Source: an uncultured Nitrospiraceae bacterium (GTDB lineage Bacteria; Nitrospirota; Thermodesulfovibrionia; Thermodesulfovibrionales; SM23-35). Taken from it: a stretch of DNA of 64,000 bases. The position numbers and the translations under genes were made by a program. Position 1 is the stretch's first letter, and every line of letters begins with the position of its first letter. The stretch is taken from contig CAVSHB010000002.1 in the NCBI GenBank assembly GCA_963727775.1, forward strand, positions 736,001 through 800,000, written 5' to 3'. Below the pieces are notes generated by a model, which saw nothing but the letters and a program-made list of their open reading frames with translations, was not told where the DNA came from and ran no database searches. Positions 6,191-40,245 of this stretch are shown one piece after another.

Positions 6191-6300
6191 AAGGATATAA
6201 GGTTGCCCTTGAGCGGCTTTTTTCGCTGATAAGCGAAAACCTCGGAGGTCCCGAAAGCTTTCGGGACCGAGAATGAGCGAAAGGGGAAGCTTATATCCTT
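6191..6300 (+). repeat. Three-way-junction repeat, copy A
   Basis: 20-bp outer inverted repeat (18/20) around GAGCGG-hairpin-CCTCGGA-hairpin-GAGAATGAGCGA. Confidence 0.85.
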
Positions 6301-6309
6301 TATAAAAAG

Positions 6310-7086
6310 TTAATTTTCCCACACAATCTCCTCAAACGGGAAAACAGGGCCTTCCTTGCACACCCGTTTGTAGCCGCTGACTGTATTAACGGCGCATCCG
6401 AGGCATGCTCCGAACCCGCAGGCCATATTCTCTTCCAGTGACGCATATCCTCTTATATTTTTATCGGCGGCAATCTTTGACAATGCCTTAAGCATAGGCT
6501 TCGGGCCGCAGGCGTACATGACATAAGATGTATCAGCAATGGAATGAGAAGATAGAAAATCATTTACAATGCCGTCAACCATTCCTTTCTTTCCGAAGGA
6601 GCAGTCATCCGTGCAGATGAGCAGTTCATTCCCAGATTTTTCCAACTCGGCAAGCATAAGAAGTTCTTTCCTGTTCTTTGCGCCGTAGACTAAATACGCT
6701 TTTCCCGAATACGCTTCAGCCAAAGAAAAAATGGATGCTATCCCTGTACCGCCGGCAACTAATAATGGGGTCTTACCGTTTCCCGGTTTGGGGTATCCTG
6801 TGCCGAGTGGTCCGATTATGTTCACTATTCCGCCGCGTCTGAAATCCTTCATTAAGGATGTGCCTTTCCCAATTACCGTATAGATAAACTGGATTGTCTC
6901 CGATGTTCTCCTGAAATAACTGAAAGGCCTTTTCAGCAGCGGGTCGTATGTATTGCCTGTTTCTATCATATAGAACTGTCCCGGAGCGGGCTCAATTACA
7001 GGGGCCAGAGGTTCTGTTATAAGAAGATTGTTTTTGCTGTTTAAAGGGAGGTTATCGGTAATTTTTGCCTTGAAGTTTCTATTCAA
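6310..7086 (-). CDS. pyrK: Dihydroorotate dehydrogenase electron transfer subunit
   Basis: RPFS, AGGTG, CGP and MACGFGACLGC...C motifs. Confidence 0.93.
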   Translation of the reverse strand: MNRNFKAKITDNLPLNSKNNLLITEPLAPVIEPAPGQFYMIETGNTYDPLLKRPFSYFRRTSETIQFIYTVIGKGTSLMKDFRRGGIVNIIGPLGTGYPKPGNGKTPLLVAGGTGIASIFSLAEAYSGKAYLVYGAKNRKELLMLAELEKSGNELLICTDDCSFGKKGMVDGIVNDFLSSHSIADTSYVMYACGPKPMLKALSKIAADKNIRGYASLEENMACGFGACLGCAVNTVSGYKRVCKEGPVFPFEEIVWEN

Positions 7087-7555
7087 ATCTTATCTCTAAT
7101 ATCTCATACTCCAGGGTCTTCGCGGGGGCTTTAATAATAACTTCATCGCCGATCTCTTTGTTCAGTAAGGCCTTTCCGACAGGAGAGCTTATGGAAATCC
7201 TTCCGTTCTTAACATCCGCTTCGTCGGGTCCGACGAGCATGAAAATTCTTTCCTCGTTACTGTCGAGGTCAAGTACCTTGACCTTTGCCCCGAAGGCGGT
7301 CTTGCTCTGGGAAATTCTTGACGGGTCTATGACATCCGAGAGGGCAAGCTTTGTTTTCAGCTCCTGTATCTTTCCCTCTATAAAAGACTGCCTTTCCTTT
7401 GCCGCATGGTATTCCGCGTTTTCGGAAAGATCGCCGTGCGCCCTCGCTTCTGAAATGTCCTTTATATTATTCGGCCGTTCGATCTTCAGAAGCTTTTGAA
7501 GCTCATCCTGCATCTTATGATATCCGTCAGGCGTGATCGGCATTCTTTTGAGCAA
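7079..7555 (-). CDS. greA: Transcription elongation factor GreA
   Basis: HGDLSENAEY and SPVGKAL motifs. Confidence 0.95.
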   Translation of the reverse strand: MLKRMPITPDGYHKMQDELQKLLKIERPNNIKDISEARAHGDLSENAEYHAAKERQSFIEGKIQELKTKLALSDVIDPSRISQSKTAFGAKVKVLDLDSNEERIFMLVGPDEADVKNGRISISSPVGKALLNKEIGDEVIIKAPAKTLEYEILEIRFE

Positions 7556-7665
7556 ATTATTTCCCTCCCTGAATGAATTAATTTAACACTTTTATGGTAA
7601 ATTTTTCTATATTAGATATCATCACGGATGTCAACAAAATTCCAGAACAATTAAAGGAGCAAGCC

Positions 7666-13554: not shown

Positions 13555-13670
13555 TATTTTCCTCCTTTGAGATAAGTTTTATTTTCAAAAAATCATATGC
13601 CCGACAACTCCCGTATTTAAGTGTGATATATAAAATTATATCAGATTATAACCTACACTATTCACAAGAT

Positions 13671-13760
13671 TGCCGACAGATACATTATTTAAGCGGTTAT
13701 ATTCTTTCGAAGAAAGAATTTACCTCGGAGGCCCGATTCGTACCGGGCCGAGAATGAGCG
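13671..13760 (+). repeat. Three-way-junction repeat, copy B (right outer arm lost)
   Basis: TGCCGACAGA...AAGCGG...CCTCGGAGGCCCG...CGGGCCGAGAATGAGCG. Confidence 0.85.
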
Positions 13761-13808
13761 AGAAAATTCTGCTCCCGGTGTAATGGCCCATGCCAAGAAT
13801 AGTTATGA

Positions 13809-16647: not shown

Positions 16648-16890
16648 ATGGGCAAAACAAAAATTGCGATAACGTTGGATGAACAGTACATTGATCAGCT
16701 GGATACATTTGTTAGTAAACATATTTTTCAAAATCGCAGCCAGGCTATTCAGGAGGCTGTAAAGGAAAAACTTGCGCGGATAAAACGCACCCGTCTTGCA
16801 AAAGAATGCGCGAAGCTTGATCCGACCTTTGAAAAGGCAATGGCGGATGAAGGATTAACTGAGGATCTGAGCCAATGGCCCGAATACTAA
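16648..16890 (+). CDS. Ribbon-helix-helix (CopG type) antitoxin
   Basis: KIAITL...NRSQAIQEAV; overlaps the toxin gene. Confidence 0.85.
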   Translation: MGKTKIAITLDEQYIDQLDTFVSKHIFQNRSQAIQEAVKEKLARIKRTRLAKECAKLDPTFEKAMADEGLTEDLSQWPEY

Positions 16891-17213
16891 GGGGTGACAT
16901 TCGATGGGCCGATTTGAACCCTGTACGTGGCCGCGAGCAAGCAGGCTTACGGCCTGTTTTGATTTTAAGCCAGGATATTTTTAATGAAAGGTCGGGGACG
17001 GTTATTGCCGTGGCTTTAACCAGTCAGCCTCAGAAAGCAGGATTTCCATTGACTCTTGAATTAAAAACATCAAATTTACCTAAAGAGTCATGGGTAAAAA
17101 TAAGCCAGATTCGGACGCTTTCCGTCGGGAGAATTGGAAAAATAATCGGAAGAGCTTCTCCTGAGGAAATAGAACAGGTTGTGGACGGATTGAATGAGAT
17201 TATAGGCGCATAA
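16875..17213 (+). CDS. PemK/MazF family toxin
   Basis: RGDIRWADLNPVRGREQAGLRPVLILS and SQIRT motifs. Confidence 0.92.
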   Translation: MARILRGDIRWADLNPVRGREQAGLRPVLILSQDIFNERSGTVIAVALTSQPQKAGFPLTLELKTSNLPKESWVKISQIRTLSVGRIGKIIGRASPEEIEQVVDGLNEIIGA

Positions 17214-18558: not shown

Positions 18559-18587
18559 GGATAATTAACTCACACTATTCAAAAGAT

Positions 18588-18700
18588 TGCCGACAGATGC
18601 AGTATTTAAGCGGATTTAAATTCTTTCGAAGAAAGAATTTGCCTCGGAGGCCCGATTTGTACCGGGCCGAGAATGAGCGTAAATACTGTATTTGTCGGCA
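18588..18700 (+). repeat. Three-way-junction repeat, copy C
   Basis: TGCCGACAGATGCAGTATTT...AAATACTGTATTTGTCGGCA outer stem with the conserved core. Confidence 0.9.
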
Positions 18701-18736
18701 CCCGAAAATTTATGAATTAAGTGGGTTAAATATCTT

Positions 18737-22485: not shown

Positions 22486-22599
22486 TAAGGGAGGATACAG
22501 TGTTTGAGCGGTTTTAAATTCTGTGAAGATTTATCGGAACAGAATTTACCTCGCAGGGCGATAGCCCGAGAATGAGCTCAAATACTGTGTCCTCCCTTA
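22486..22599 (+). repeat. Three-way-junction repeat, copy D
   Basis: TAAGGGAGGATACAGTGTTT...AAATACTGTGTCCTCCCTTA outer stem with the conserved core. Confidence 0.88.
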
Positions 22600-25023: not shown

Positions 25024-25034
25024 AGCTGCAATAA

Positions 25035-26075: not shown

Positions 26076-27983
26076 TTAGACATGGCTGCTTTCTCCATAC
26101 ATCCCCAGCCAATTTATAAAGTCCTGTGGGGCTAACGGCTCACTAAAAAGAAACCCTTGCGCTTCATCACACTTCTGGGAACGCAAAAATTCCAGTTGAT
26201 CAACATTTTCAACCCCTTCAGCAATCACTTTTAACCCCAGGCTGTGTGACATCGCAATAATCGCCTTGGAAATCGACTTATCATTAGGGTTTATCGCAAT
26301 TGAATGTAAAAAGGATTGGTCAAGTTTTATCTTGCTCAGTGGTAAGTATTTAAGATAACTTAAAGATGAATAACCAGTTCCAAAATCATCAATAGAAATG
26401 TTTATCCCAAGAGTTTTTAATTCATTGAGCGTCGACAAAGCCAAATCTGAATCCTGCATGACTGCACTTTCTGTGAGTTCCAGTTCTAAATACTTTGATT
26501 CCAGATTTGTTTCTTCTAATATATTCATCAACATTTTTACAAATGTTTTGTGCTTAAGCTGATGCATTGAAACATTGACTGACAGGACAATCGACGGAAG
26601 CCCGGCTTCCTGCCATGCTTTGTTCTGAGCGCAGGCAGAACGTACTATCCATTCGCCTATGGGTTGAATAAGACCCGTTTCTTCTGCTAACGGGATAAAC
26701 CGCATCGGAGGCAATAAACCATAATGGAGATTATGCCAACGCATTAGCACCTCCGCACCAACAACTTTCCCACTTTTCAAATCCACTTCCGGCTGGTAGT
26801 GCAAAATGAACTCCTTCTGCTGGAGTGCCTTATGTAGATAGCTTTCCATTTTTATTTTTTCCATAACATATGCATTGATTGACGGTGTATAGAATTGATA
26901 GTTGTTCCTTCCCTGTTCTTTGGCATGATACATGGCCGCGTCTGCATTTTTTACAAGTGATTCCAGATCGTTACCGTTTTCAGGAAAGATGCTGATGCCA
27001 ATACTCCCCGTGGTATAGATTTCTTTATTATTGATTACAAATACCTCAGATAGTTTTTCAAGGATTTTATTTGCAACGACAGAAGCAGCGTCAGTATTAT
27101 TTATATCACAAAATAGAAAGAGAAATTCATCGCCTGACAGACGGCTGACTGTATCACCTTCACGCATGGTATCCTGTAAACGCTTTGACACTGCCTGAAG
27201 AAAGAGATCACCTGTATTGTGACCAAATGTGTCGTTGATGAACTTGAACCTATCCAGGTCAATGAACATAATAGCTAATGATCGCTTATGTCTGCGTGCT
27301 TTTGCCAGTTCTTGTCTTAAACGATCATCGAATAAAGAACGATTAGGCAGACCTGTCAGGGTATCGTAAAAAGCAAGCTTTTTTATAATCTCTTCATTTC
27401 TCTTGCGGTCTGTAATATCTTCGCAAATCGTAATAATAGAAAGAACTTCTCCCTTAGTATTTTTAACTACATCCGACATTAAATATACAGGAAAGTTAGT
27501 GCCGTCTTTTCTTACATTAATGCTTTCTCTTTTATATGTGCTTTGTATCTGTTCGGGCATGGGTTTCCATATTTCAGGTGGACTAAATACTCGGGCTTCA
27601 GTGCCGAATAGATCTATATCGCTATAACCGTGCATTTCAGCATCAGCAGGATTTGAATAGATAATCTTTCCCTTTGCATTGCTGATGGTTACACCTATTT
27701 GCATATTATCAATGGCCTTTTTCAATGAAAGAAGAGTTTCTTCATCTCTCTTATGATCGGTAACCTCATGTTTCCATCGGCGATATAACAACAAGATAAG
27801 CCACAATAAATAAAGAAAAATGAAATTGATGATGAGTTCTATTGCAGGGAAACTTGTATATATGCTTACAAGTTCTTCGAGGATATGGATAAAATTCAAC
27901 GTTAACTTGAAAAAAGTGACAATGAAGGCAAGGAATAGGATAATGGATAGATAGAGGAGAGTTTGACTTTTCCTTTCCTTCAT
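26076..27983 (-). CDS. Membrane-anchored PAS-GGDEF-EAL protein
   Basis: Two hydrophobic segments, PAS/PAC, SGDEF, EVL and DDFGTGYSS. Confidence 0.9.
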   Translation of the reverse strand: MKERKSQTLLYLSIILFLAFIVTFFKLTLNFIHILEELVSIYTSFPAIELIINFIFLYLLWLILLLYRRWKHEVTDHKRDEETLLSLKKAIDNMQIGVTISNAKGKIIYSNPADAEMHGYSDIDLFGTEARVFSPPEIWKPMPEQIQSTYKRESINVRKDGTNFPVYLMSDVVKNTKGEVLSIITICEDITDRKRNEEIIKKLAFYDTLTGLPNRSLFDDRLRQELAKARRHKRSLAIMFIDLDRFKFINDTFGHNTGDLFLQAVSKRLQDTMREGDTVSRLSGDEFLFLFCDINNTDAASVVANKILEKLSEVFVINNKEIYTTGSIGISIFPENGNDLESLVKNADAAMYHAKEQGRNNYQFYTPSINAYVMEKIKMESYLHKALQQKEFILHYQPEVDLKSGKVVGAEVLMRWHNLHYGLLPPMRFIPLAEETGLIQPIGEWIVRSACAQNKAWQEAGLPSIVLSVNVSMHQLKHKTFVKMLMNILEETNLESKYLELELTESAVMQDSDLALSTLNELKTLGINISIDDFGTGYSSLSYLKYLPLSKIKLDQSFLHSIAINPNDKSISKAIIAMSHSLGLKVIAEGVENVDQLEFLRSQKCDEAQGFLFSEPLAPQDFINWLGMYGESSHV

Positions 27984-28201
27984 TGTTCGCTCATTTTGTG
28001 TAAAAAACCAGTTAGTTTTTCTGAACATTTTTGCTTTCAAAGTGAGGACAGCGTATTTTCAGGTTTAACTTCAAATTCTTTGAGCAAGGACTAAATATAT
28101 TGCATGTCTGAGAAAGGCTATTTCTGTTGATGCAACTAATATTTAGACTTATTTTATACCCCACAAAAATATGTTGAGGTGAAGGAAAAAATCATCGTTA
28201 C

Positions 28202-28561
28202 TTAATTTGATTTCACAAGCAAGACGTCAGCAACAATTTCTTTGCTGCTATTTTCTGACTTCGTTACTTTCTGAAGAGTGAAATCTTTTCCGCAAACAAT
28301 TTTTGCAACATCTTCTGTTTTTAGGTTGGAGAACTGTTCTTGAGTTACAGCCCATGTTACCGGTCCAACAGTTACTGCTTTTCCCTCGCAATATCCTGCC
28401 ACTATCGCGGTGACGTTCCCAGTTTTGTTGTCATAAGTTGCTCCCAGTCTTCCCGAAACTATAGAGACTGATGAATCCGCATAGGCCAGAGTTGCTCCGA
28501 TGGAAATCGATACTAATAATAAAGCCATGAATAGCAATCTCACTGCGCTCTTTTTACACAT
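28202..28561 (-). CDS. Hypothetical exported protein
   Basis: Signal-like N-terminus ending AYA; GAGGG ribosome-binding site. Confidence 0.7.
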   Translation of the reverse strand: MCKKSAVRLLFMALLLVSISIGATLAYADSSVSIVSGRLGATYDNKTGNVTAIVAGYCEGKAVTVGPVTWAVTQEQFSNLKTEDVAKIVCGKDFTLQKVTKSENSSKEIVADVLLVKSN

Positions 28562-28689
28562 ACCGCCCCTCGCTTTTTTTATAGACAACAGTTTATAAGA
28601 GAAAAACACAACCCTCTGAAAGATTTCTTCCTTCACTCTCATCCAGACAAAAATGTCTTTGTACCTTTTTCTACTACAATACACTTTAA

Positions 28690-28718
28690 ATGTTAAGGAA
28701 AAAGCAACCTCTTGTCAA
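28690..28718 (-). promoter_or_regulatory. Sigma70-type promoter
   Basis: Minus strand TTGACA-17 nt-TAACAT. Confidence 0.6.
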
Positions 28719-28738
28719 GGCAACCTCTGGGCTTTTTT

Positions 28739-30085
28739 TTAAAAAAAGTGTTTAAAGGGAAATTTTGACTTTTTCCCTTTTTTGAGAAGTTTACCTATCT
28801 CTTCAGGGGGAAGAGGAAGGCTGAATATGTTACCCTGAAGTTCATCACATTTGAGGGAACGGATGAGTTGCATCTGTTCCTTCTTTTCCACGCCTTCAGC
28901 TACGACCTTCATATTCAGCGTATGAGCTAAAGCGATAATCGCCCTTGCAATAACCTCGTCTGTAGGACTGAATGAGACTGAAGATATGAAAGGCTCTACA
29001 ATCTTCAGCTTGTTTATAGGAAAATATTTAAGGTAACTGAGGGAAGAGTAGCCAGTTCCAAAATCATCGATAGAGATACTCACACCTATCTTCCTTAACA
29101 CTTTAAGTGCCTTAACAGTACGCTCCAGATTTTTCAAAAAGATACTCTCTGTTAATTCTAATTCGAGGAATTTAGGTTCAAGCCCGGTATCTTCAAGCAC
29201 TCTGCTTACGATATATGTTATGTCTTCTTCATGGAATTGACGGGATGAGATGTTCACCGCAATACGTAAAGGTTTGAGGCCGGCTTCCTGCCAAACTTTA
29301 TTTTGTTTGCAGGCTGTGCGGAGGACCCATTCACCGAGTGGCACAATAAAGCCTGTTTCTTCCATTAAATAAATAAAGCTCTTTGGATAAATTAAGTTAC
29401 TCCCTGGCTTCTGCCAGCGAACAAGGGCCTCCAGGCCGGTTATCATCCCTGATTTAAGGTCAATTTGCGGCTGGTAGTGAAGGATGAACTCTTCACGTTG
29501 GAGTGCAAATTTCAGATCATTCTCCATTACCATTCGCTCAAACGCCCTTTCAGTTAAAGCTGGCGAATAGAATTGATATGTGTTTTCCCCGAGTTCCCTT
29601 GAGCGTTGCAAGGCTGTATAAGATGTATTGAGGAGAGCTTTAGGACTATTCCCGTCGTTTGGATAGACGCTGATTCCGACATTAATTGGCACAATCAATT
29701 TATGGTTTTTAAGAGTAAAAGGTGATTCTAAAGAGGCAAATATCTTTCTGGCTATTAGGGCGGCATCTTCAGCATGTCTGATCTCGGGTAGCAAAATCAT
29801 AAACTCATCTCTGCCAGGTCGAGCCACAATATCGCTCTTTCTTACACAAGCTTTTAGACGTTTTGCTATCGCCTTTAATAATTTATTGCCATAATTTTCA
29901 CCAAGTGTATCGTTAATTAGCTTTAAACGATCAATGCAGATAAACAAAATAGCCGCAATATTTTTATTTCGGGCTGCAAGTGCAAATGCCTGTGTTACAT
30001 AGTCAAAGAAGACATTTCTGTCAAGAAGCCCTGTCAAGGGATCGCAGGAAGCAGTTTTATTTACAGTTTTTTTCTGGTCTTTCAA
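28739..30085 (-). CDS. GGDEF-EAL protein with degenerate GGDEF
   Basis: RPGRDEF; EALVRW; DDFGTGYSS. Confidence 0.9.
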   Translation of the reverse strand: MKDQKKTVNKTASCDPLTGLLDRNVFFDYVTQAFALAARNKNIAAILFICIDRLKLINDTLGENYGNKLLKAIAKRLKACVRKSDIVARPGRDEFMILLPEIRHAEDAALIARKIFASLESPFTLKNHKLIVPINVGISVYPNDGNSPKALLNTSYTALQRSRELGENTYQFYSPALTERAFERMVMENDLKFALQREEFILHYQPQIDLKSGMITGLEALVRWQKPGSNLIYPKSFIYLMEETGFIVPLGEWVLRTACKQNKVWQEAGLKPLRIAVNISSRQFHEEDITYIVSRVLEDTGLEPKFLELELTESIFLKNLERTVKALKVLRKIGVSISIDDFGTGYSSLSYLKYFPINKLKIVEPFISSVSFSPTDEVIARAIIALAHTLNMKVVAEGVEKKEQMQLIRSLKCDELQGNIFSLPLPPEEIGKLLKKGKKSKFPFKHFF

Positions 30086-30396
30086 TTCAAGTCTTTTTCA
30101 GCTCCCGTGAGCTGTCTGTCGATCGAACAAGTATCCCGATCACTATCTGAAAAGCATTAAAAATTGCAAGGACATCTTATTGCCCTATTTTTCGTTTCAT
30201 CACTAATCTGACATGTCATTGGGATATCTTTAAATCTTTCTGACTCTAATTAGAATACAAAAATATTGATTTTGTCAAATATTCAGATTAAAAGTAGGCA
30301 ACTCTATTTTGTTGATTCGTGTTTGTATTGTCGCATCATAGAACAAGCTTTCAAAATCTCGCTTAGAATAGGAAGTACTTCAGTAATTCTGACCCT

Positions 30397-30879
30397 TCAT
30401 GCGACTCTTGTTTCTTGCTCTTTTCCTTTCAACCTTTGCCTGTAAGCGTCATAATCAGGCACGAAGCGCTCGTACGCTTCGGACATTAATGATGACGAAA
30501 TTATGAAGTCCGCCGAGGCCCGGTTGCACGCTACGGGAATGTTCCAGACTACGGCTATCCTCAAAAGGGCTTTCACGTCAGGATCGTGAGGCTGCGGTTC
30601 AAGAGGGTCCCAAAAAAAGATCAGGAAATCAATGATCCCTTCTGCTATCTTTGCGCCAATTTGCTGGTCGCCACCCAATGGGCCGCTTTGAAGTTTGATG
30701 ATCTCAAGCCCGAGTTCCTTCTCCAGAATAGTACCCGTCGTTCCCGTGGCATACAGCTTGTGCTGGGCAAGAAGCTCTCTATTAAATTTTGCCCATTGCA
30801 GAAGATCAGATTTCTTATTGTCGTGGGCAACGAGGACGATATTCTTCCTCTGCTCCATTTCTATCTTTTTAGATTCCAT
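30397..30879 (-). CDS. mgsA: Methylglyoxal synthase
   Basis: [23 protein letters not shown] and PHDPDV motifs. Confidence 0.95.
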
Positions 30880-30963
30880 AGAATTGTCCTCCTTATTCAA
30901 AGTAATCTCTCCATCCAGATTCTTATTTGCACTACGCACAATTATATCAGGTTCGAGGGATTT

Positions 30964-31575
30964 TTAAATTAAGCCCTTCTCCCTGTAAATGGACAGAAAA
31001 ATGTCCTCTTTCTTATGCATCAATGTCACCGACCGGGAAAAGGTGGTAATCGCAAATTGAAGGATATCTTCAGGCTTCACATAAAATAATTCAACGTTTC
31101 TTTGAGGAACATAGTATGTCAGAAGGTTTAGATGTAGGGCCTCTCTGCAGAATCCGAAAAGTTTTTTCAGCACATTCTTCATGGATTCCTCAATCCCGGC
31201 AACCCTGAGGCTGAATACACCACAGATAAAAATCACCTCAAACTTTTGCCTAAACTCTGTCTCTTCTATATCTATGGCACTAAACTCTGCCTCGGGATAT
31301 TTCTTCTTAGCAAGTGTAATCAAATTCTCGTTGACGTCGATCCCGCAATAACTTAGAGAAATCCCCTTTCCCCTGATGAATCCGTAAAAATCTCCCTTCC
31401 CGCATCCGAAGTCGAGGACCTTTTTGCCTGAGATATTGCCTGCAATAGTAAGGAGGGTCTCATACCTCCGCTGCTGGCCTTCGGGGGTCCATCTCACGGC
31501 TTGCGGCGAATCACCGAAGTCTTTCAGGTGCCTGTCATAGAAGCTCAAAAGCTCTTTTTTGCCGAGGGGGTCCAT
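30964..31575 (-). CDS. Class I SAM-dependent methyltransferase
   Basis: VLDFGCGKG motif. Confidence 0.85.
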   Translation of the reverse strand: MDPLGKKELLSFYDRHLKDFGDSPQAVRWTPEGQQRRYETLLTIAGNISGKKVLDFGCGKGDFYGFIRGKGISLSYCGIDVNENLITLAKKKYPEAEFSAIDIEETEFRQKFEVIFICGVFSLRVAGIEESMKNVLKKLFGFCREALHLNLLTYYVPQRNVELFYVKPEDILQFAITTFSRSVTLMHKKEDIFLSIYREKGLI

Positions 31576-31652
31576 TTTTTTTAAGATATACTTATTATAG
31601 TCTTAGCCGGCAGGATTGGAAACCCTGTTCCCAATACAAGAAATAAGATATC

Positions 31653-31764
31653 AATGCGGGAGACAGTATTTGAGCGGCTTTAAATTCTGTGAAGATTTAT
31701 CGGAACAGAATTTACCTCGGAGGGCAACAGCCCGAGAATGAGCGAAAATACTGTCTCCCGCATT
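31653..31764 (+). repeat. Three-way-junction repeat, copy E
   Basis: Perfect 19-bp outer stem AATGCGGGAGACAGTATTT with the conserved core. Confidence 0.9.
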
Positions 31765-31825
31765 TCCAGATAGTTCACGAATGATAGGGGTTGATGTTAA
31801 AATATATAAAAGAAAAGGAGTCTGT

Positions 31826-32176
31826 ATGGGCGAGTTTAAATATAAGGAATATACTGAAGAGGAAAATCGGATTTACAATGAAGCGATGGATAAGATAATG
31901 CGAGGCTTAGAAGACGGACTGAGCTTTCATGCCGCGTGCAGTGCTGCTCCTGTTGCGGATGAGGAGTTGAAAGCTTTCATTTTAGATGATGCTCTCAAGA
32001 TATTGATCGCAACTATGCATTATACAAAAGGGACCCCTCTGGATGAAGTAGCAGCTCTCTTAAATGTATCTGTTGAGATTGTCGACAAGGCAAACCGCGA
32101 AATGCTCGATGATGTAGCTATATCTTCCATGGAGGCATACAAGTTAAGTCCCGATGGTCCGATAGGAAACGCATAA
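31826..32176 (+). CDS. Hypothetical protein
   Basis: AAGGAG ribosome-binding site; first gene of a three-gene run. Confidence 0.7.
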   Translation: MGEFKYKEYTEEENRIYNEAMDKIMRGLEDGLSFHAACSAAPVADEELKAFILDDALKILIATMHYTKGTPLDEVAALLNVSVEIVDKANREMLDDVAISSMEAYKLSPDGPIGNA

Positions 32177-32183
32177 GGCCGGG

Positions 32184-32444
32184 ATGGAAGAGCAGAAAAA
32201 AAGAGTCAGGCTTTATTCTTTAAGCACTTGTCCCACGTGCAAAATGATGAAAAGATATCTTGATGACAATAACATAAAATATGAACTCATAGAAGTCGAC
32301 TTGCTGGACAGCGGTGAACAGTGGGTCACATCAAAGGAAATCAAGAAGTATAATCCGGCAGTGACTTACCCGACCTTAGTCATAGAAGAAGTCATAATAG
32401 AACTCGATAAGGAAGCCATAAAGAAGGCGTTAGATATTAAATGA
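32184..32444 (+). CDS. Glutaredoxin-like protein
   Basis: LSTCPTC and TYPT motifs. Confidence 0.85.
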   Translation: MEEQKKRVRLYSLSTCPTCKMMKRYLDDNNIKYELIEVDLLDSGEQWVTSKEIKKYNPAVTYPTLVIEEVIIELDKEAIKKALDIK

Positions 32445-32770
32445 CCCCTGACAGGCTTTATGATATTCTCAGCAAATATTCCGAATCCATCGGAATCCGG
32501 TTGAATAAGGACAAGGAATACGTCATGGAAATAATCGGGGGGCTGCTTACAAATGAGTCCCGATACGGTTACCGTTCGTGTCCCTGCCGGCTTGCGACAG
32601 GCGCAAAGATAAAGGATGCCGACATAATATGCCCGTGTATTTACAGAGACACCGACATCAAAGAATACGGAAGCTGCTACTGCAGGCTGTATGTTTCACA
32701 GGAATGGAATGGAGAGAAGATTAAGCATATCAGGGTGCCGGAGAGAAGACCGATAGATAAACAAGGCTGA
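32441..32770 (+). CDS. Ferredoxin:thioredoxin reductase catalytic subunit family
   Basis: CPCR, CPC and CYC motifs. Confidence 0.9.
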   Translation: MTPDRLYDILSKYSESIGIRLNKDKEYVMEIIGGLLTNESRYGYRSCPCRLATGAKIKDADIICPCIYRDTDIKEYGSCYCRLYVSQEWNGEKIKHIRVPERRPIDKQG

Positions 32771-32811
32771 AGCGATGTTTAATGAGATGTCAACACCCGA
32801 TTAATTAATCT

Positions 32812-32949
32812 CCATACCCCGCCGTCTCTGCGGCGGGCACCTTACGTCGTCGGGGTGCAGGGCGTCGGAGCGAAGCGCAGACCCTTGCCGACCCGCGGGG
32901 TCTAATACCCCGTGGTGTCGTGCCGAGCAAAGCGAGGTTTAGTTTATTC
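32812..32949 (+). repeat. 138-bp multi-hairpin element, copy 1
   Basis: Identical to 44988-45125. Confidence 0.95.
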
Positions 32950-32963
32950 ATAAATTTTGCTAC

Positions 32964-33076
32964 TACCGACAAATACAGTATTTGCGCTCATTCTCGGCCC
33001 GGTACAAATCGGGCCTCCGAGGTAAATTCTTTCTTCGAAAGCATTTAAAACCGCTTAAATACTGCATCTGTCGGCA
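32964..33076 (-). repeat. Three-way-junction repeat, copy F
   Basis: Near-identical reverse complement of copy C. Confidence 0.9.
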
Positions 33077-33132
33077 ATCTTATGAATTATGAATGATGTA
33101 GGGTATAGAGAACTCGGAATACAGATTGATTC

Positions 33133-33633
33133 TCAGAGGGTATGAATCAGGTAGATTATAAGGAAGATACCGATAGCGAAGATAGATAAAGTGAGCATTA
33201 CGTCAAGTATAAGTGACGGCTGATAGGTATTTGCGTTGATCTGACATTCAACCTTCTTGTAACGTATAAAAGCAAGAACACCCAGCAGGGCGCCGAGCCC
33301 TATAAGCGCTATTCCCAAGACTGACGAGTACCCGGGGGCAGGAGCTTGCCCGGGTGCGCCTATGCGACCGTACCCCTGACTTATGAAATAAGAAAACTGT
33401 TTAACGAACAAACCGAACTTCTCAACGACAAAACCGAATGCCATGATTCCTATGCTCGTCCTGATCCACGCGAGGAAAGTCCTTTCATTCGCCATGTGGA
33501 CGCGGCGGTTACGGACTTTTGCAACCCGTTCATCTTCAGGGATGTGCGGGGAACACTTAGCCAATAGTTGGTATATTTTATCGAGTAATAACATTCTCCT
33601 ATATAGTTTAGCAGTCTCCCCCTTGTCAATCAA
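33133..33633 (-). CDS. DUF202/YidH membrane protein (start uncertain)
   Basis: HMANERTFLAWIRT motif. Confidence 0.88.
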   Translation of the reverse strand: MIDKGETAKLYRRMLLLDKIYQLLAKCSPHIPEDERVAKVRNRRVHMANERTFLAWIRTSIGIMAFGFVVEKFGLFVKQFSYFISQGYGRIGAPGQAPAPGYSSVLGIALIGLGALLGVLAFIRYKKVECQINANTYQPSLILDVMLTLSIFAIGIFLIIYLIHTL

Positions 33634-33709
33634 TCTTATATAAAGTTATAATTTTGAGCGATCCGATTCACCTTGGTGCGAGATTCTTTCAGAGAGAGGT
33701 AAAAAATAC

Positions 33710-35803
33710 ATGGACCAGAACTCAGCGAACGGCTTTTCTTTTTTGCTTGAGATAGGCGCTGAAGATTTGCCTGCAAGATTTCTCCCTTTGGCGATAAAAC
33801 AGCTGAAGGAAAATACCGGAAAAATATTGAAGGATAATCATGTAAGATTTTTCGATATAAGGACATACGGGACTCCTCGGAGACTTGCCGTAATCGCAGA
33901 CGGTGTTCCACAGATGCAGGAAGACAGGACAATAAAGGTATTCGGTCCGTCAAAAAAGGCGGCGTTCGATGAGAGGGGCAACCCAACAAAAGCCGCTCTC
34001 GGGTTTGCGAATTCACAGGATATAAGTGTGGAGAGTCTTGTTATTAAGAGCAAAGATAAGGGTGAATATGTCGTGGCTGAAATAGATGAGAAAGGTGTTC
34101 CTGTCGCGGAAGTATTGCCTGAAATATTCAAGAGTATTGTGCTTTCTCTGCACTTCCCGAAAGCAATGAGATGGGGCAATAATAATTTGAAATTTGTCCG
34201 GCCCATACGCTGGCTGCTGGCTTTATTTGACAAGGAGATAATCAGTTTTGAAATAGACGGAATAAAAAGCGGTAATAGAACGATGGGCCACAGATTTTTG
34301 TCGCCCGCAGGATTTCAGATAAAGGAGATACCGAGTTACAAAAAATTGCTCAATAATAATTTTGTAATAATCGACGCTGAAGAAAGAAAAAGAATCATAG
34401 CCGAAAAGATGGAGAAACTTCTGGCGTCGACAGGTGAAAGACCTATTAAGGATGAAGACCTCCTTGAGACGGTTGTAAATCTCGTTGAATACCCTGTGCC
34501 TGTTGTTGCAGCGTTTCCCGAACAATACCTTGAACTGCCGAAGGAACTGCTCATAACCGTCATGAAAGGACATCAGAAGTATTTTGCTGCTGAGGACGCC
34601 AATGGTAAGATTACAAATCATTTTGTTGTCGTTAGCAATACCAGTCAAGAAAATGCCGATACCGTGAAGATCGGTGCGGAGAGAGTTATCAAGGCTAGGT
34701 TTGAAGATGCGCGGTTCTATTTTGATGAGGACAGGAAAAAGCCCCTGTCCGACAGGATTGAGGAACTCAAAAAGGTAACATTCCAGGAAAACCTCGGGAG
34801 TCTGTATGAAAAGATGCTGAGGGTGGCGTCGATTGCGGAAGTTCTTGCCGGCAGGATCAATCCGGAGGTAAAGGCCAACCTTGTCCGTGCAGCACGGCTG
34901 GCAAAGACGGACCTTATAACAGGTGTTGTTAGGGAGTTCCCGGAACTGCAGGGCGTCATGGGCGGGTATTATGCGCTGCATGACGGAGAAGGAAATGAAG
35001 TTGCAAAGGCTATAGAAGAACAGTATCTGCCTGCATATTCGGGAGGAGATCTACCCGGGACGGATGCCGGCGCTTTGCTGAGCATAGCTGATAAGATCGA
35101 CAGCATTGCCGCCTTTTTTTCCATAGGCCTTATGCCTACCGGGTCTGAAGACCCGTTTGCATTGCGAAGACAGTCTCTCGGCGTCATAGCAATCATCCTG
35201 GATAAAGGCTATGAGATTTCCTTAAGAACGCTTGTTGAAAAGGCATTGGAAAGTCTGTCAGGGACAAAGAACCCCGAGGGAACAAAGAACCAAATCCTGC
35301 AATTTTTCAGGGCCAGAATAGAAACGGTATTCGCGTCTCAAGGACATGCCCCCGATTTGATAGAAGCGGTCCTCCCGCTGTCTCATGATGTTTTTCTGAA
35401 GGACCTGTTACAAAGGCTTGACGCCCTTAAACAATTCAAGGAGCATGCGGGGTACAACGATTTTATCACCGCTATGAAACGCGTGAACAATATTATCCCC
35501 AAAGGCGCTGTCCCTGTATTAAAAAGGGAACTCTTGATGGAGGAACCGGAGAAAAAACTCAAAGAAGCTCTTGATTCCGTGGATGCAAAATTCAACCCAC
35601 TCCTTGAAAACGTGGGCTATCAACCTGCGGTAGAACTTCTCCTTTCTCTGACAGATCCGATCAATCATTTTTTTGACAGTGTGCTTGTGATGGACAAAAG
35701 AGAAGAGATTAAGCTGAACAGACTCGCGTTGCTGAATGAGATATGGAAAACCGTTTCGGTTTTTGCTGATCTTTCAAAGCTGTCTGCTATCGAGAAAAGT
35801 TGA
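33710..35803 (+). CDS. glyS: Glycine--tRNA ligase beta subunit
   Basis: LLEIGAEDLP, TPRRL, EFPELQG and GSEDPFALRR motifs. Confidence 0.95.
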   Translation: MDQNSANGFSFLLEIGAEDLPARFLPLAIKQLKENTGKILKDNHVRFFDIRTYGTPRRLAVIADGVPQMQEDRTIKVFGPSKKAAFDERGNPTKAALGFANSQDISVESLVIKSKDKGEYVVAEIDEKGVPVAEVLPEIFKSIVLSLHFPKAMRWGNNNLKFVRPIRWLLALFDKEIISFEIDGIKSGNRTMGHRFLSPAGFQIKEIPSYKKLLNNNFVIIDAEERKRIIAEKMEKLLASTGERPIKDEDLLETVVNLVEYPVPVVAAFPEQYLELPKELLITVMKGHQKYFAAEDANGKITNHFVVVSNTSQENADTVKIGAERVIKARFEDARFYFDEDRKKPLSDRIEELKKVTFQENLGSLYEKMLRVASIAEVLAGRINPEVKANLVRAARLAKTDLITGVVREFPELQGVMGGYYALHDGEGNEVAKAIEEQYLPAYSGGDLPGTDAGALLSIADKIDSIAAFFSIGLMPTGSEDPFALRRQSLGVIAIILDKGYEISLRTLVEKALESLSGTKNPEGTKNQILQFFRARIETVFASQGHAPDLIEAVLPLSHDVFLKDLLQRLDALKQFKEHAGYNDFITAMKRVNNIIPKGAVPVLKRELLMEEPEKKLKEALDSVDAKFNPLLENVGYQPAVELLLSLTDPINHFFDSVLVMDKREEIKLNRLALLNEIWKTVSVFADLSKLSAIEKS

Positions 35804-35845
35804 AAATCATCCTTACCGGTCCGCTTAATCCATAAAAGTTGCTTA

Positions 35846-35958
35846 TGCCGACAGATGCAGTATTTGCGCTCATTCTCGGCCCGGTACGAATCGGGCCTCC
35901 GAGGTAAATTCTTTCTTCGAAAGAATTTAAATCCGCTTAAATACTGTATCTGTCGACA
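35846..35958 (-). repeat. Three-way-junction repeat, copy G
   Basis: Reverse complement of the C-type unit. Confidence 0.9.
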
Positions 35959-36001
35959 ATCTTATGAACATACTTATTCCTGTTGTTCCTGGTGAATCAC
36001 T

Positions 36002-37198
36002 ATTCTTGAAAGGTTTTCAGCTTTACAGCATAGAGACTTCAGACTCTTCTGGTTAGGCCAGCTTATCTCTTTATCAGGGACGTGGATGCAGTCTGTTGCG
36101 CAGGGATGGCTTGTATACAGTCTCACAAAATCACCTTTTTATCTCGGGATGGTTGCTGCAGCCGGCTCATTACCGATCCTTTTGTTTACATTTGTGGGAG
36201 GGATAGCGGCAGACAGGTTCAGAAAGAGAAATCTCCTCCTTATGACACAGGCGATATCGATCTTGCCTGCGCTCCTCCTCGGCATACTGATCAATACTCA
36301 TTTGATAGCTGTCTGGCATGTTGCCGTTCTTGCTGCAGTGCTTGGGACCGTTAATGCCTTTGATGTGCCTGCACGACAGTCGTTCATTGTGGAAATGGTC
36401 GGGAAGAGCAATCTTTCAAACGCCATAGCTCTGAATTCTGCGGCGTTCCACGGCGCCCGGATGATAGGCCCAGTGGTGGCGGGTGTAACGATCGCAGCTA
36501 TCGGGTTGCCGGCCTGCTTTTATCTTAATGCCATAAGCTTTATCGCGGTCATCATCGCGCTTTCCAAAATAAAAGCGAAAGGAGATGTTCGTGAAAGTTC
36601 CAAAGGACTTTTGGAAGATTTTATTGAGGGAATACTGTATATCAAAAATAAACCCGAGATTTTCAGAATCATGATCCTGATTGCCGTATTCAGTCTCGTG
36701 GGCATGCCGTTTATAACCCTGCTTCCCGTATTTGCCGTCGAGGTATTGAGGGCGGGCGCCAAAGGGTTTGGTTTCCTTGTGGGCGCGACCGGGGCAGGCG
36801 CCCTGACAGCGGCTTTGTACCTTGCCTTCAGGGGCGATATCAAAGATAAGAACAGGTTTATGTCCATGTCTGCGCTCTGTTTTACATTATCCCTTTTCGC
36901 ATTTTCATTCTCCAGGAATTTTACTGTTTCCATAATTACACTTGCGGTCGCCGGCTGGAGCCTTGTCAGTTTCTTTGCAACTGCAAACAGTTTCATACAG
37001 CTTTCCGTGCCCGACAACCTGAGAGGGAGAGCGATGAGCGTTTATACCTTTGTATTTCTGGGCACCGCGCCTATAGGCAATTCACTCATCGGCGTTATGG
37101 CGGATTCTATCGGTACGACAAGGGCGGTAAGTCTTTCGGCTGTTGTATGTTTTATCGTATCGGTTATCTTTTCGAGGAAAATATTTAGAATGGAATGA
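36002..37198 (+). CDS. MFS transporter (start uncertain)
   Basis: FSALQHRDFRLFWLGQLISLSGTWMQ lies upstream of the first ATG; GIAADRF and FDVPARQ motifs. Confidence 0.88.
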   Translation: MLERFSALQHRDFRLFWLGQLISLSGTWMQSVAQGWLVYSLTKSPFYLGMVAAAGSLPILLFTFVGGIAADRFRKRNLLLMTQAISILPALLLGILINTHLIAVWHVAVLAAVLGTVNAFDVPARQSFIVEMVGKSNLSNAIALNSAAFHGARMIGPVVAGVTIAAIGLPACFYLNAISFIAVIIALSKIKAKGDVRESSKGLLEDFIEGILYIKNKPEIFRIMILIAVFSLVGMPFITLLPVFAVEVLRAGAKGFGFLVGATGAGALTAALYLAFRGDIKDKNRFMSMSALCFTLSLFAFSFSRNFTVSIITLAVAGWSLVSFFATANSFIQLSVPDNLRGRAMSVYTFVFLGTAPIGNSLIGVMADSIGTTRAVSLSAVVCFIVSVIFSRKIFRME

Positions 37199-37212
37199 TA
37201 TAGTATGTTCTT

Positions 37213-37941
37213 ATGAAAATACTCGCTGTCGAAACATCAACAATGCTTGGCGGTCTGGCTGTTATTGACGATTCAACCGGGCTAATTGCGGAAATAAGGC
37301 TCAATGTCAAGTCAACGCATTCAGAGAGGCTGATGACAACTACAGACCATATACTGAAGCATTCGGGGTTGAAAATGTCCGATATCGATTGTTTTGCAGT
37401 TGCTATAGGCCCCGGTTCATTCACGGGACTGAGGATTGGATTGAGCACCGTAAAAGGCTTTTCCTATGCAGCCGGGAAGCCGATAGTCTCTGTCCCTACG
37501 CTCGAGGCCTTTGCATGGAATTTCCCTTATTGCAGATATCCTGTTTGTATAATGCTTGACGCAAGGAAAAAGGAGGTATATTCAGCCCTGTTTAGATGGG
37601 ACAACAGCGGCGCTGCAAGATTGATAGGAGAGACATCGATTAAGGTGGATAAACTTCTGGATAAAATTAATGAAACATTGAAAACGGGGAATGGGGAAAT
37701 CCCACCTGATAAAATCCTGTTTGCAGGGGAAGGGGCGCTGCTTTACAAAAGTGATATCATCAACACAATGGGCGAAAGGGCAGTATTTGCGTCACATGAA
37801 AAGATGGCGCCGTCACCGGCAAACGTAGCAATTATAGGGCTGCAAAAGGCATTGAAAGGGGAGTTTTCCGAGCCGGTCAGCCTTGTCCCGTTTTATATGA
37901 GGAGATCTGAAGCCGAAATCAAATGGAAGGATAGTTCTTAA
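37213..37941 (+). CDS. tsaB: tRNA t6A biosynthesis protein TsaB
   Basis: ILAVETS, GPGSFTGLRIG and DARKKEVY motifs. Confidence 0.93.
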   Translation: MKILAVETSTMLGGLAVIDDSTGLIAEIRLNVKSTHSERLMTTTDHILKHSGLKMSDIDCFAVAIGPGSFTGLRIGLSTVKGFSYAAGKPIVSVPTLEAFAWNFPYCRYPVCIMLDARKKEVYSALFRWDNSGAARLIGETSIKVDKLLDKINETLKTGNGEIPPDKILFAGEGALLYKSDIINTMGERAVFASHEKMAPSPANVAIIGLQKALKGEFSEPVSLVPFYMRRSEAEIKWKDSS

Positions 37942-37957
37942 TCAGGCCGGACTGTGA

Positions 37958-38965
37958 TTATTTCCATCTGCCCTCAATCCCATATCCGCATTTGATACAT
38001 TTACCTCCCTTGATCCTTTGCTCACCGATTCTGAATCCGAAGCGGTTTATGAGGAGTTCTTTGCAGTCCGGGCAATAAGTGTTTTCTCCGCCTTCCCCCG
38101 GCACATTGCCTTCATATACATATTTCAGGCCTGCTGCAACTCCTATTTCCCTTGCCTTGCGGAGTGTCTTAACGGGCGTTCTCGGTTTGTCGGTCAATTT
38201 ATATGTCGGATAAAACTGTGACACATGCCACGGTATGGATACGTCGACTGACGCGATAAAACCGGCGATATCCCTTAAGTCTTCGTCTGAGTCATTATAG
38301 TCGGGGATTATCAAAGTCGTTACCTCGACCCATACCCCGAGTTCCTTCATAAGCCGTATCGTCTCTTTTACAGGCTCAAGCCGGGCCCCGCATATTTTTT
38401 TGTAAAAATCATCGTTCCCCTTAAGGTCTATATTGTTCCCGTCAAGATAAGGCGCTATGAACCTTGTTGCTTCGGGGCTTGTATATCCATTGCTCACAAA
38501 TACATTCTTTATCCCTTTTTCATGCGCAAGCCTTGCGCAGTCATAGGCAAACTCAAGGAATATTGTCGGCTCGGTATAAGTATAGGATATGCTCTCGCAG
38601 CCGCTCCTCTGCGCTGCCGAGACGATCTCATCGGGAGTAACGGGTTTGCCCAAAATGTCTTCGTGTTCCTTCGGATACTGCGATATCTCAGAATTCTGGC
38701 AGTGGTCACAGTGAAAATTGCAGCCGACGGTAGCAATGGAAAAAGAGGTCGACCCCGGCAGAAAATGGAACAAAGGCTTTTTCTCTATGGGGTCGATATT
38801 AGTGGAGACGACCTTCCCGTATACGAGACTGTAAAGGACGCCGTCGATATTTTTGCGCACGTGGCAGATTCCGCGTTTATCTTCTCTGATGAGGCAGTTA
38901 TGTGCGCAGAGAAAGCACCTGACTTTATTGTCATCCAGTTTTTCATAAAACAACGCTTCTTTCAT
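37958..38965 (-). CDS. AmmeMemoRadiSam system radical SAM enzyme
   Basis: IDPIEKKPLFHF, CNFHCDHC, YTYTEP and NTYCPDC motifs. Confidence 0.9.
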   Translation of the reverse strand: MKEALFYEKLDDNKVRCFLCAHNCLIREDKRGICHVRKNIDGVLYSLVYGKVVSTNIDPIEKKPLFHFLPGSTSFSIATVGCNFHCDHCQNSEISQYPKEHEDILGKPVTPDEIVSAAQRSGCESISYTYTEPTIFLEFAYDCARLAHEKGIKNVFVSNGYTSPEATRFIAPYLDGNNIDLKGNDDFYKKICGARLEPVKETIRLMKELGVWVEVTTLIIPDYNDSDEDLRDIAGFIASVDVSIPWHVSQFYPTYKLTDKPRTPVKTLRKAREIGVAAGLKYVYEGNVPGEGGENTYCPDCKELLINRFGFRIGEQRIKGGKCIKCGYGIEGRWK

Positions 38966-38996
38966 GATCGGATTATAGCACAGTTATGTCAAACTG

Positions 38997-39476
38997 CTAA
39001 GTAACGGTAATATCGAGTGTTCCTTCCCAGTAGCCATGGAGGTTGCATCGCTGGTGCGCTACGAGGGTAAGTTTGCCCGCTGGCGCGGATTCCTTTGTTA
39101 AGACAACATTGAAAGTGGCCTTTGGATTCAGGTATCCTTTCGGTTCGAAATCGATCCTGCCGGCCGGCTCATTTCCTATGTTCAACTCTATATATTCGAT
39201 CCAGTGAGCAGGCCCCATAGGATGGACAACCTGGCCTACACTTACTTCGACAGCGAACGATTCGCCTGCTTTAACGGTAGCCGGAGCGGTTATGACGGGC
39301 GCATGCGATTTTTCAAGCGGAGTCTTATTTGACGGGTCCTTTACCCTGTTGATGGTCTCAAAAAGGCTCTGGTCGGCCTTTACGGGGAAATATTTCTCCG
39401 CAGCAAAGGCTTTTCCCGCAATACCGGATGCAATGGTCCCAACCGCCATGGCTTTTAAAAAGTTTCTTCTGTTCAT
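38997..39476 (-). CDS. Tat-signal superoxide reductase-like (class II SORL) protein
   Basis: NRRNFLK; EKSH, HPM, HWI and CNLHG motifs. Confidence 0.85.
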   Translation of the reverse strand: MNRRNFLKAMAVGTIASGIAGKAFAAEKYFPVKADQSLFETINRVKDPSNKTPLEKSHAPVITAPATVKAGESFAVEVSVGQVVHPMGPAHWIEYIELNIGNEPAGRIDFEPKGYLNPKATFNVVLTKESAPAGKLTLVAHQRCNLHGYWEGTLDITVT

Positions 39477-39527
39477 AAGTTCTCCCTTCTTTCTTGATGG
39501 ATTGATTTTTAAAGGATATCTTTTTCC

Positions 39528-40064
39528 TTACTTGTGTCTGGAATCTCCCCCCTCTTCAAAAGGCATTGTTTCGAGGTTCTGGTAGAGCCTGATATAAACA
39601 ATTGTTTTGCCGTCTGTCTTTTTGTAGTACACGTGAAGGATGTCGGGGTTGCCGTAAATTATCGGGTAATATAAAGGCCTTATTTCGTACCCTATGACGG
39701 TACCCTGGTTATCTATAATTTTGCTCAATTGCGATTTCCAGAAGTCATGATGAAACCCTACAAAGTCTTCTGCCTTTTTCAAGGCATCCCGGGCGAGAAC
39801 TCCTTTGATTATCTTGTAATCAAATTCAGGAGCAAAGACCTCGAAGGTGTTTTGAGTCTCCTCTTTAGCAAGGATAGCAATAGTCTTTTTATCGTTTGCA
39901 TAGTTCCCCCCGTAAAGAATGAGTGTGTAAGCACCGGTTATCTCTCCTGAATTTGCGCTTTCTGTTTTTAAATATCTCCCGCCGTAACAGGAATAGTTTG
40001 TCAGAGAGAGAAGTATAAACATAAAAGCGGTAATTACTCTAAATAGATTTTTGTTTATCGACAT
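39528..40064 (-). CDS. Hypothetical probable lipoprotein
   Basis: AAGGAGG ribosome-binding site; hydrophobic stretch followed by Cys. Confidence 0.7.
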   Translation of the reverse strand: MSINKNLFRVITAFMFILLSLTNYSCYGGRYLKTESANSGEITGAYTLILYGGNYANDKKTIAILAKEETQNTFEVFAPEFDYKIIKGVLARDALKKAEDFVGFHHDFWKSQLSKIIDNQGTVIGYEIRPLYYPIIYGNPDILHVYYKKTDGKTIVYIRLYQNLETMPFEEGGDSRHK

Positions 40065-40137
40065 TAGGCCCTCCTTTTTACTGCAGAGAATTTTGCGATT
40101 CATATTTCTGCCCCAGCTAATCCATAAAATTTTCGTG

Positions 40138-40245
40138 TGCCGACAGATACAGTATTTGCGCTCATTCTCGTCCGCCATAGCGGACTCCGAGGAAATTCTT
40201 TCTTCGAAAGAATTTAAAACCGCTTAAATACTATATCTGTCGGCA
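40138..40245 (-). repeat. Three-way-junction repeat, copy H (alternative P3 hairpin)
   Basis: C-type outer stem; P3 is GTCCGC-TATG-GCGGAC. Confidence 0.9.

Follow-up and report, generated by a model that had tools for sequence, protein, structure and literature searches.

MITEs (miniature transposable elements with inverted repeats) derived from DDE-type transposons, among them Correia/NEMIS, ERIC, Nezha and TIME, are gene-less, multi-copy sequences of 30-300 bp with ends resembling those of an intact insertion sequence (IS), short target duplications and stable folds (PMC3184786, PMC4133298). TwoAYGGAY (RF01731), likewise multi-copy and of variable copy number, is built on a basal stem closing two hairpins, the loops of which are proposed as CsrA sites (PMC2864571; PMC4333381; bioRxiv 10.64898/2026.09.22.753630); these and the other published accounts cited below were available in part, and the comparisons refer to those parts. 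The element described here, present in eight intergenic copies within a 64,000-nt stretch (the window) of an uncultured Nitrospiraceae bacterium (assembly GCA_963727775.1, contig CAVSHB010000002.1, positions 736,001 to 800,000), shares traits with both. Each copy has a long stem, P1, closing a three-way junction that bears the hairpins P2 and P3; judged by its ends the element would be an IS1380-derived MITE, and its core may work in a manner akin to TwoAYGGAY. The analysis makes it rather probable that the copies are IS1380-ended MITEs carrying a three-armed core selected for its fold as RNA, with loops predicted to bind CsrA in those hosts that possess csrA.

Unlike the DDE-derived MITEs, the present element has an interior far better conserved than its ends and common to elements with unrelated ends in other phyla. 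The arrangement of neighbouring copies resembles that of TwoAYGGAY, with divergent doublets making up 68% there and 6/8 here, and the versions of the family in csrA hosts carry loops of the proposed CsrA-site type, which points to a functional kinship. However, the TwoAYGGAY model gives no matches in the window, in 20 loci or in five genomes (the last search run without a positive control), AYGGAY-type loops do not occur in the window copies, and the present family has an identified IS vehicle and target duplications; the junction strands also differ, only a GA on each side of P3 being alike when compared by eye with one part of the published alignment (PMC2864571). The Rfam comparison proposed in the initial annotation of the window returned no family, with zero matches at the gathering score in the window, zero at E<=1 in 20 loci and only 4 weak unrelated matches (E 1.1-7.3) in 31400-36200, and novelty is not removed on that count. 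A further likeness is to bcr1 of the Bacillus cereus group, which is about 155 bp long. The account of bcr1 includes short flanking repeats, a branched fold and two stem-loops with compensatory changes; unlike the present family it is reported there from Bacillus only (PMC3184786), and the likeness is drawn from the description, not from sequence. The literature searched, with subscription papers, ISfinder and bioRxiv supplements outside its scope, holds no description of the family or of both junction words, in line with the earlier statement that the element is not a recognised named family, and it appears as real, mobile and uncatalogued in the sources searched.

All eight copies lie where they had been annotated, on the strands then given, and align on one common junction as copies of a single plan. 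A covariance model built from 69 copies finds the same eight in the window (62.5-103.5 bits, no ninth) and 73 in the 3.43-Mb host genome, G000 (150 of 434 candidates scored). The limits first proposed hold for the core and fall short of the full extent, which reaches ~20-30 nt farther beyond P1 on each side; copies span 153-195 nt, the mobile unit measures ~157 nt, and no transposase gene lies inside. Copy B, which had been taken for truncated, is instead a chimera, having for its right arm a P1 arm that belongs to another subfamily (compared by eye).

The fold is strongly strand-specific. On the annotated strand the folding z-scores are -6.6 to -10.5 in seven copies and -3.0 in copy B, and the opposite strand folds worse by 3-12 kcal/mol in the five copies folded both ways. 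Pairing under change is retained in 87.8% of cells among 69 sequences versus 61.7% in shuffles that ignore relatedness, so that these figures are not probabilities, and two further model-found sequence sets have 91.9% and 91.4% of cells paired. Two-sided changes occur at 33/40 base pairs of the 69 sequences, and P1, P2 and P3 all covary strongly, which supports the structural claim. Within P1, G-T exceeds A-C by 75:14 in 71 G000 copies and by 145:29 in 119 copies from elsewhere, a ratio of ~5:1 that therefore fixes the folding strand. Three observations support selection on the fold of one strand: the stems covary, G-T prevails over A-C, and the unpaired junction bases persist across phyla in which the stems, the loops and the outer ends have all been replaced. 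The earlier argument that swapping stems betray selection on a fold consequently holds for the selection, to which covariation testifies, but the swaps themselves would be at least partly due to recombination between copies.

P1 is 18-25 bp long in 101 of 119 copies and extends beyond this by a tandem purine mismatch along with two G-C pairs; one of these pairs becomes A-U in 4/50 sequences. The last G of GCGG covaries with the first C of CTC (G-C 150, A-T 16, other 1; n=167, all 16 A-T sequences being one subfamily), which favours a pairing between these two bases and a junction register other than the CTC/GAG closing initially drawn. The bulge reads G-N-A, with the middle base G in 138, C in 25, A in 3 and T in 1 of 167 sequences; of the near-invariant GGA/GCA described before, the outer G and A are kept while the middle base varies, with A and T also seen. 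Altogether ~20 junction bases are near-invariant, most of them 97-100% conserved (167/173 pooled sequences), an invariance that is partly by construction, as the copies of the first alignment were found by the junction pattern. The topology, with a 3-nt loop followed by tandem G.A pairs and a third helix on the other strand, fits a k-junction as far as the available description extends. In a k-junction loop, however, the first base should be fixed and the second free, whereas here the first G.A pair has its G in only 138/167 sequences, and the third loop base does not vary.

A second inverted repeat encloses P1, and its profile matches four 1.65-kb elements and one partial copy in G000. The four are full IS1380 copies of 1650-1651 nt which share their ends with the repeats and encode a 448-aa transposase scoring 409 bits on NF033539 (cut-off 180). 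Counting ends above the 99th percentile of random DNA, 27 of 71 copies in the genome have both IS1380-like ends and 52 have at least one. Exact 4-bp target duplications flank 12 of the 27 two-ended copies against 3.8 expected (0/10000 permutations), which answers the proposed search for duplications in the affirmative; the flanks of these copies conform to YTAR in 23 cases on the left and 15 on the right. Other genomes give 13 exact duplications in 25 against 6.2 expected (5/10000 permutations), and the IS1380 element itself has an exact 4-bp duplication in 2 of its 4 copies. Its copies at G000:C1:1115306 and 1358641 have unequal flanking 4-mers, which may record a rearrangement between copies. 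IS1380 members are listed with 4- or 5-bp duplications (PMC4133298), and capture of adjacent DNA by IS1380 is described (PMC9330008).

Contigs of related strains, compared over 21200-41100 with single-contig evidence per site, supply an empty site for copy H, where exactly 157 nt are missing from a contig of run X1, namely the 153-nt element and one 4-nt target copy. The other sites are not clean: at copy G in the glyS-MFS spacer, where an empty site had been suggested, a 6-kb related contig lacks the copy, with 30 other letters replacing 172; at copy F one contig skips the entire spacer 32756-33142; and at copy E contigs of two runs carry a deletion removing most of the copy. It is thus well supported that the repeats are gene-less MITEs with ends matching an IS1380 of the same genome as their vehicle, and likely that they were moved by its transposase. 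The term structured mobile repeat, offered at the outset, is apt, except that in G000 the mobility signal resides in the outer IS1380-type ends and not in the fold. Identity to the consensus in 23 standard copies is 99% for the junction, 95-96% for the P1 arms and 86% and 73% for the outer ends, the comparison being ungapped and the last figure therefore understated.

The core extends well beyond this vehicle. A scan of relatives, proposed along with that of the genome, finds the junction pattern in 20 of 24 family genomes and 2 of 16 other genomes of the order, with 0 for the reversed-pattern control, and the covariance model has matches in 14/150 genomes sampled from the phylum. Across genome contigs the pattern scan yields at least 115 loci, 18 of which were dropped by eye as chance before later counts, and 73 of the matches listed passed the P1 pairing score. 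Real copies among the matches listed come from records of Thermodesulfovibrionales, other Nitrospirota, Desulfobacterota, Planctomycetota and Omnitrophota, with further records from Gemmatimonadetes, Latescibacterota, Competibacteraceae, Ignavibacteria, Saccharibacteria and Parcubacteria; in metagenomes, 97 of 121 loci passed the P1 pairing filter or lie too close to a contig end to judge. BLAST against plasmids and phages gave no match to the element. Viral contigs were considered as hosts and discarded, since none of their 77 pattern matches has a paired P1 (best 11/20) and they reflect chance.

Several hosts carry the core in other ends or in none. Genome G041 has the same junction within other inverted repeats, and of its 8 two-ended copies 5 have exact 3-bp duplications (a different head being present in one of these), with 2 more copies showing a duplication plus one extra base. 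Copies with both IS1380 ends number 0/20 in G129, 0/12 in G152, 0/7 in G108 and 0/3 in G035; the ends are asymmetric in G042, and G044, G045, G129, G152 and G035 have no shared ends. The Desulfobacterales locus L132, a single copy assessed by eye, has ends starting with GTAA and a flank match of 7/8, and these ends presumably resemble those of IS66. The IS1380 transposase (NF033539) was not found in G041, G044, G129 or G187, and G108 holds 7 weak fragments of it. P1 arms were not found as ends of another IS outside copies or fragments, duplications at P1 ends lie near the shuffled expectation (22 vs 12 at >=5 nt), and no mobility gene recurs near 107, then 300 loci, with two tyrosine-recombinase matches only. 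Because the core occurs in other ends or none and the ends decay faster than P1 and junction, the core outlasts and predates its IS1380 shell; the sequence comparison shows P1 and core to be older and more widespread than the IS1380 ends. As separate observations, six G041 loci (L378, L240, L365, L372, L380, L386) have the same shell and P1 with a different or compound head, the compound heads carrying extra hairpins inside P2, and a wider set of junction heads exists. The G129 copies L397 (2842-2973), L403 and L406 have ~50 nt of common, non-IS1380-like flank on both sides, suggesting a larger host element.

Recombination between copies has left several traces. In G000, 6 of 71 cores are inverted relative to their ends, and crude clustering into 10, 9 and 7 stem types gives 27 combinations, with all four combinations present for 7, 7 and 3 quartets of stem types. 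The stem swapping would most simply be read as recombination at those junction words that are invariant. The 8 close doublets, every one of them inverted, would fit the collapse of direct pairs, and copy B looks like a product of such a collapse. The pyrK-pyrD spacer occupied by copy A has counterparts in four other lineages, with a related P1 and different P2 and P3, one of them flipped; the PyrD proteins of these lineages are 75-82% identical (full or long matches). Among 29 relatives the spacer holds a full copy in 1 and remnants in 2, and measures <=28 nt in 10. The empty-site comparison foreseen for this spacer hence yields short spacers in 10 of 29 relatives and filled ones in four other lineages, and copy A appears dispensable because few relatives carry it and 10 have so short a spacer. 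In many relatives unrelated palindromic repeats also occupy the spacer (L596-L609), which resembles a hot spot for insertion, and copies near one and the same gene pair from different sources (L102, L404, L490, L499, L557) possibly mark a second old site.

The hairpin loops supply the best evidence as to whether the core acts as RNA or as single-stranded DNA (ssDNA). Loops in other lineages read CAGGATG, CATGGATG, CAGGGATG or CACGGAGG and match the published CsrA consensus (PMC7652899) and the ANGGAX loop (PMC4005645). The csrA gene was not found in G000 nor in 23 of its 24 family relatives, and was found in 5/5, 2/5 and 19/56 further genomes. A terminal-loop GGA is present in at least half of the copies in 21 of 22 csrA genomes versus 8 of 48 genomes without a csrA match, and A(N)GGA occurs in 59 of 63 copies from csrA hosts versus 22 of 152 from others. 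Both loops are of the GGA type in 47 of the 63 csrA-host copies, and the reverse-strand word TCC appears in the loops of 1 of 63; of 61 G000 copies, one has A(N)GGA and one has GGA in both loops. Larger samples give GGA loops in 20/21 copies of G129, 10/10 of G152 and 8/10 of G108, and in 4/20 of G006, 2/17 of G023 and 0/4 of G035, and contrasts exist within groups, between G026 and G178 of one family and between G206 and G044 of Planctomycetota, with few copies each. RNA is favoured over ssDNA, if indirectly, because the loops follow csrA and CsrA binds RNA; the core thus likely works as RNA, although csrA may only mark another, flagellar-linked factor. GNA triloops are frequent in the lineage of G000 and number 12 and 20 against 0 and 3 for their reverse complements among 123 and 126 distinct hairpins. 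The small RNAs CsrB/CsrC and RsmY/RsmZ similarly have A(N)GGA hairpin loops with flanking AC/GU pairs (PMC7652899, PMC4005645), but they offer many sites on one gene, whereas the present family has two sites per copy on dispersed mobile copies, with no promoter or terminator found at the copies and no Rfam match.

The folding strand is also oriented unevenly relative to genes. In co-directional spacers of G000 it is antisense in 33 cases and sense in 5, and in tight spacers the ratio is 14:0, these counts resting on crude open reading frame (ORF) calls; the same bias is seen in G006, G023, G129 and G152. It suggests a harmful effect of the folded strand on operon mRNA within the class. The idea that CsrA makes the sense orientation tolerable was rejected (Fisher p 0.24), and GC skew proved patchy when a link to replication direction was examined.

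The explanation that we favour links these results as follows. Common inverted repeats, 4-bp YTAR duplications and an empty site characterise the copies, and the 448-aa IS1380 enzyme would transpose them in trans; P1 and core are older and wider than the IS1380 ends and occur in other ends or none. Copies would recombine both across P1 and at the invariant sequences of the junction, thereby swapping P2 and P3, flipping the core and producing chimeras such as copy B. The folding strand would act as RNA, presenting the CsrA dimer with two A(N)GGA loops in csrA hosts, and the loops would have drifted in the csrA-less lineage of G000. At its weakest step, which we regard as possible but somewhat doubtful, a conserved host RNA-binding or processing factor would read the junction and end or cut the transcript, which would explain why operon mRNAs of Nitrospirota avoid the folding strand.

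A number of observations weigh against this explanation. An IS1380 at least 66% identical occurs in 4 of the 24 family relatives, two or three of these being fragments and most of the 24 genomes being fragmented assemblies, while the core pattern in 20 of the 24 goes beyond the range of a close IS1380. The association of loop GGA with csrA has a Fisher p of 2e-10 that is overstated, kin not being independent, and the genomes compared are incomplete, with 33 loci and 2 G000 copies unparsed; G195 has csrA and no GGA, one G020 copy, outside the count, is a further exception, and 8 genomes with GGA loops (completeness not given) have no csrA match. Hosts lacking csrA also have an intact junction, for which CsrA therefore cannot account. 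Neither a -10 box or U-tract excess at P1 ends nor any promoter or terminator signal was found, and the lack of cUUCGg among the 123 and 126 distinct hairpins, together with the GNA triloops, suits DNA. The folding strand is mostly antisense even in csrA hosts (12:3 in G129, 4:0 in G152), the bias is lacking in G108 (1:6), and outside Nitrospirota 12 copies are antisense versus 15 sense (6 versus 9 when counted by hand with Pfam-checked genes).

A rival reading takes P1 and core for an ssDNA element resembling REPINs, moved by an HUH enzyme (RAYT or IS200-type) that reads the junction, the IS ends being later captures. GNA triloops and the bulge are specially stable in DNA, cUUCGg is missing, P1 keeps its narrow length, a RAYT-like gene lies in the window, and copies without IS ends are multi-copy, with 103 pattern matches in G044, 36 in G045 and 21 model matches in G129; like REP/REPIN sequences with their RAYT, the copies are intergenic, multi-copy, biased to one strand and built on a long hairpin. 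Such an element is nevertheless unlikely here. Unlike REP/REPIN sequences, the copies have no small REP hairpin per arm, have DDE-type ends with duplications and no adjacent RAYT, and none lies beside the RAYT-like gene of the window; 0 of 11 Y1 loci of G041-G044 have a copy within ~1.5 kb and G045 has no Y1 match, while at the 2 of 8 G000 IS200 loci that adjoin a copy the IS200 has inserted after TTAAT in the outer repeat. Mobility genes do not recur near the 300 loci, and a DNA-only element leaves the csrA-following loops unexplained.

The near-invariance of ~20 junction bases amid free stems, and the 14:0 antisense ratio in tight spacers of G000, would be expected of an undescribed self-cleaving ribozyme that is for this reason kept out of operon mRNA, yet no Rfam ribozyme matches and sense copies lie between co-directional genes in other phyla, e.g. 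at lexA-dinP (L114) and after rpoB (L140), and we consider a ribozyme very improbable. Recombination of the kind proven by inverted cores and chimeras, decaying outer ends and the emptiness of the copy A site in many relatives would also agree with a neutral palindromic MITE whose stems are repaired by template switching, whose copies are made alike by gene conversion and whose shared junction is due to recent horizontal spread. Repair from arm to arm is, however, strand-blind and gives no ~5:1 preference of G-T over A-C, unpaired bases are fixed across phyla while stems, loops and outer ends are replaced, and the loop sequence follows a host gene, csrA, so that neutrality seems quite unlikely. 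The copies are listed in Table 1.

Table 1. Copies of the element and three other genes in the 64,000-nt window
Feature	Position	Strand	IS1380-type ends	Description
Copy A	6191..6300	+	Under threshold, undetectable	P1 and three-way-junction core; pyrK-pyrD spacer, antisense to operon
Copy B	13652..13790	+	Left only	Main-subfamily left arm, core, right arm of other subfamily; right limit approximate
Copy C	18565..18729	+	Present; inverted repeats from 18569 and to 18725	Complete; P1 and core 18588-18700; TTAA duplication 18565-18568 and 18726-18729
Copy D	22486..22599	+	Under threshold	P1 and core with GCA bulge; antisense to both neighbours
Copy E	31631..31790	+	Decayed	P1 and core 31652-31765
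Copy F	32938..33102	-	Present	P1 and core 32964-33076
Copy G	35820..35958	-	Decayed; right end 35820-35838, left end partly lost	P1 and core 35846-35958; antisense to glyS and MFS gene
Copy H	40108..40268	-	Present	153-nt element 40112-40264; core 40138-40245; CTAA target copy 40265-40268, decayed target copy 40108-40111
MazF-like toxin-antitoxin gene	16875-17213			
Protoporphyrinogen oxidase ORF	21103-22179			Spans only ~370/470 model positions; may be split
Ferredoxin-thioredoxin reductase subunit	32441-32770			Below-cut-off match to FtrB double-selenoprotein family

Other repeats and mobile elements adjoin some of the copies. A different short end motif (of the ..ATGGACAGACTCTAA type) at 22467-22485 borders copy D and perhaps belongs to another MITE family; the same type is also seen beside copies at G000:C1:1569.7 kb and G000:C2:596.9-597.2 kb. 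Beside copy F, 32800-32940 contains TTAAT with the remnant of an IS200-type end hairpin after it, and then a stretch that is GC-rich and repeat-like, and IS200-type TnpA elements are inserted at TTAAT in the outer repeat of a copy at G000:C1:672113 and at G000:C3:133614. The RAYT-like gene of the window (55663-56591) encodes a 285-aa Y1 protein with a C-terminal HTH and lies between 11-bp inverted repeats; the element cuts off a tyrosine-integrase gene (55201-55695), has a frameshifted 98% copy at G000:C1:139 kb, and a same-ended relative interrupts an IS1380 copy at G000:C3:395 kb.

The G000 copies are probably passengers, and the interest lies in the family. New here is the correlation of the terminal-loop GGA with host csrA, and the family constitutes a natural experiment in which one junction occurs either with GGA loops or lacking them, in hosts that possess csrA and in hosts that do not. 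Its interior is that of a MITE under stronger constraint than the MITE ends. CsrA-binding RNAs outside Gammaproteobacteria are described as predicted but unproven in the available part of one account (PMC4333381), that of another states as undetermined whether such RNAs act beside FliW (PMC7652899), and a third states as unresolved how mobility and Csr regulation are linked in TwoAYGGAY (bioRxiv 10.64898/2026.09.22.753630); the natural experiment, together with a named transposase and target site, makes both this link and the CsrA-RNA prediction testable. Tentatively, the family might be a cross-phylum structured RNA module that rides on unrelated transposon ends, its invariant junction read by a host factor and its pair of CsrA loops gained and lost with csrA, a broader proposal that we hold to be possible rather than probable. 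If true, the family would represent a Csr element that is both mobile and dispersed, lies outside Gammaproteobacteria and has an identified vehicle.

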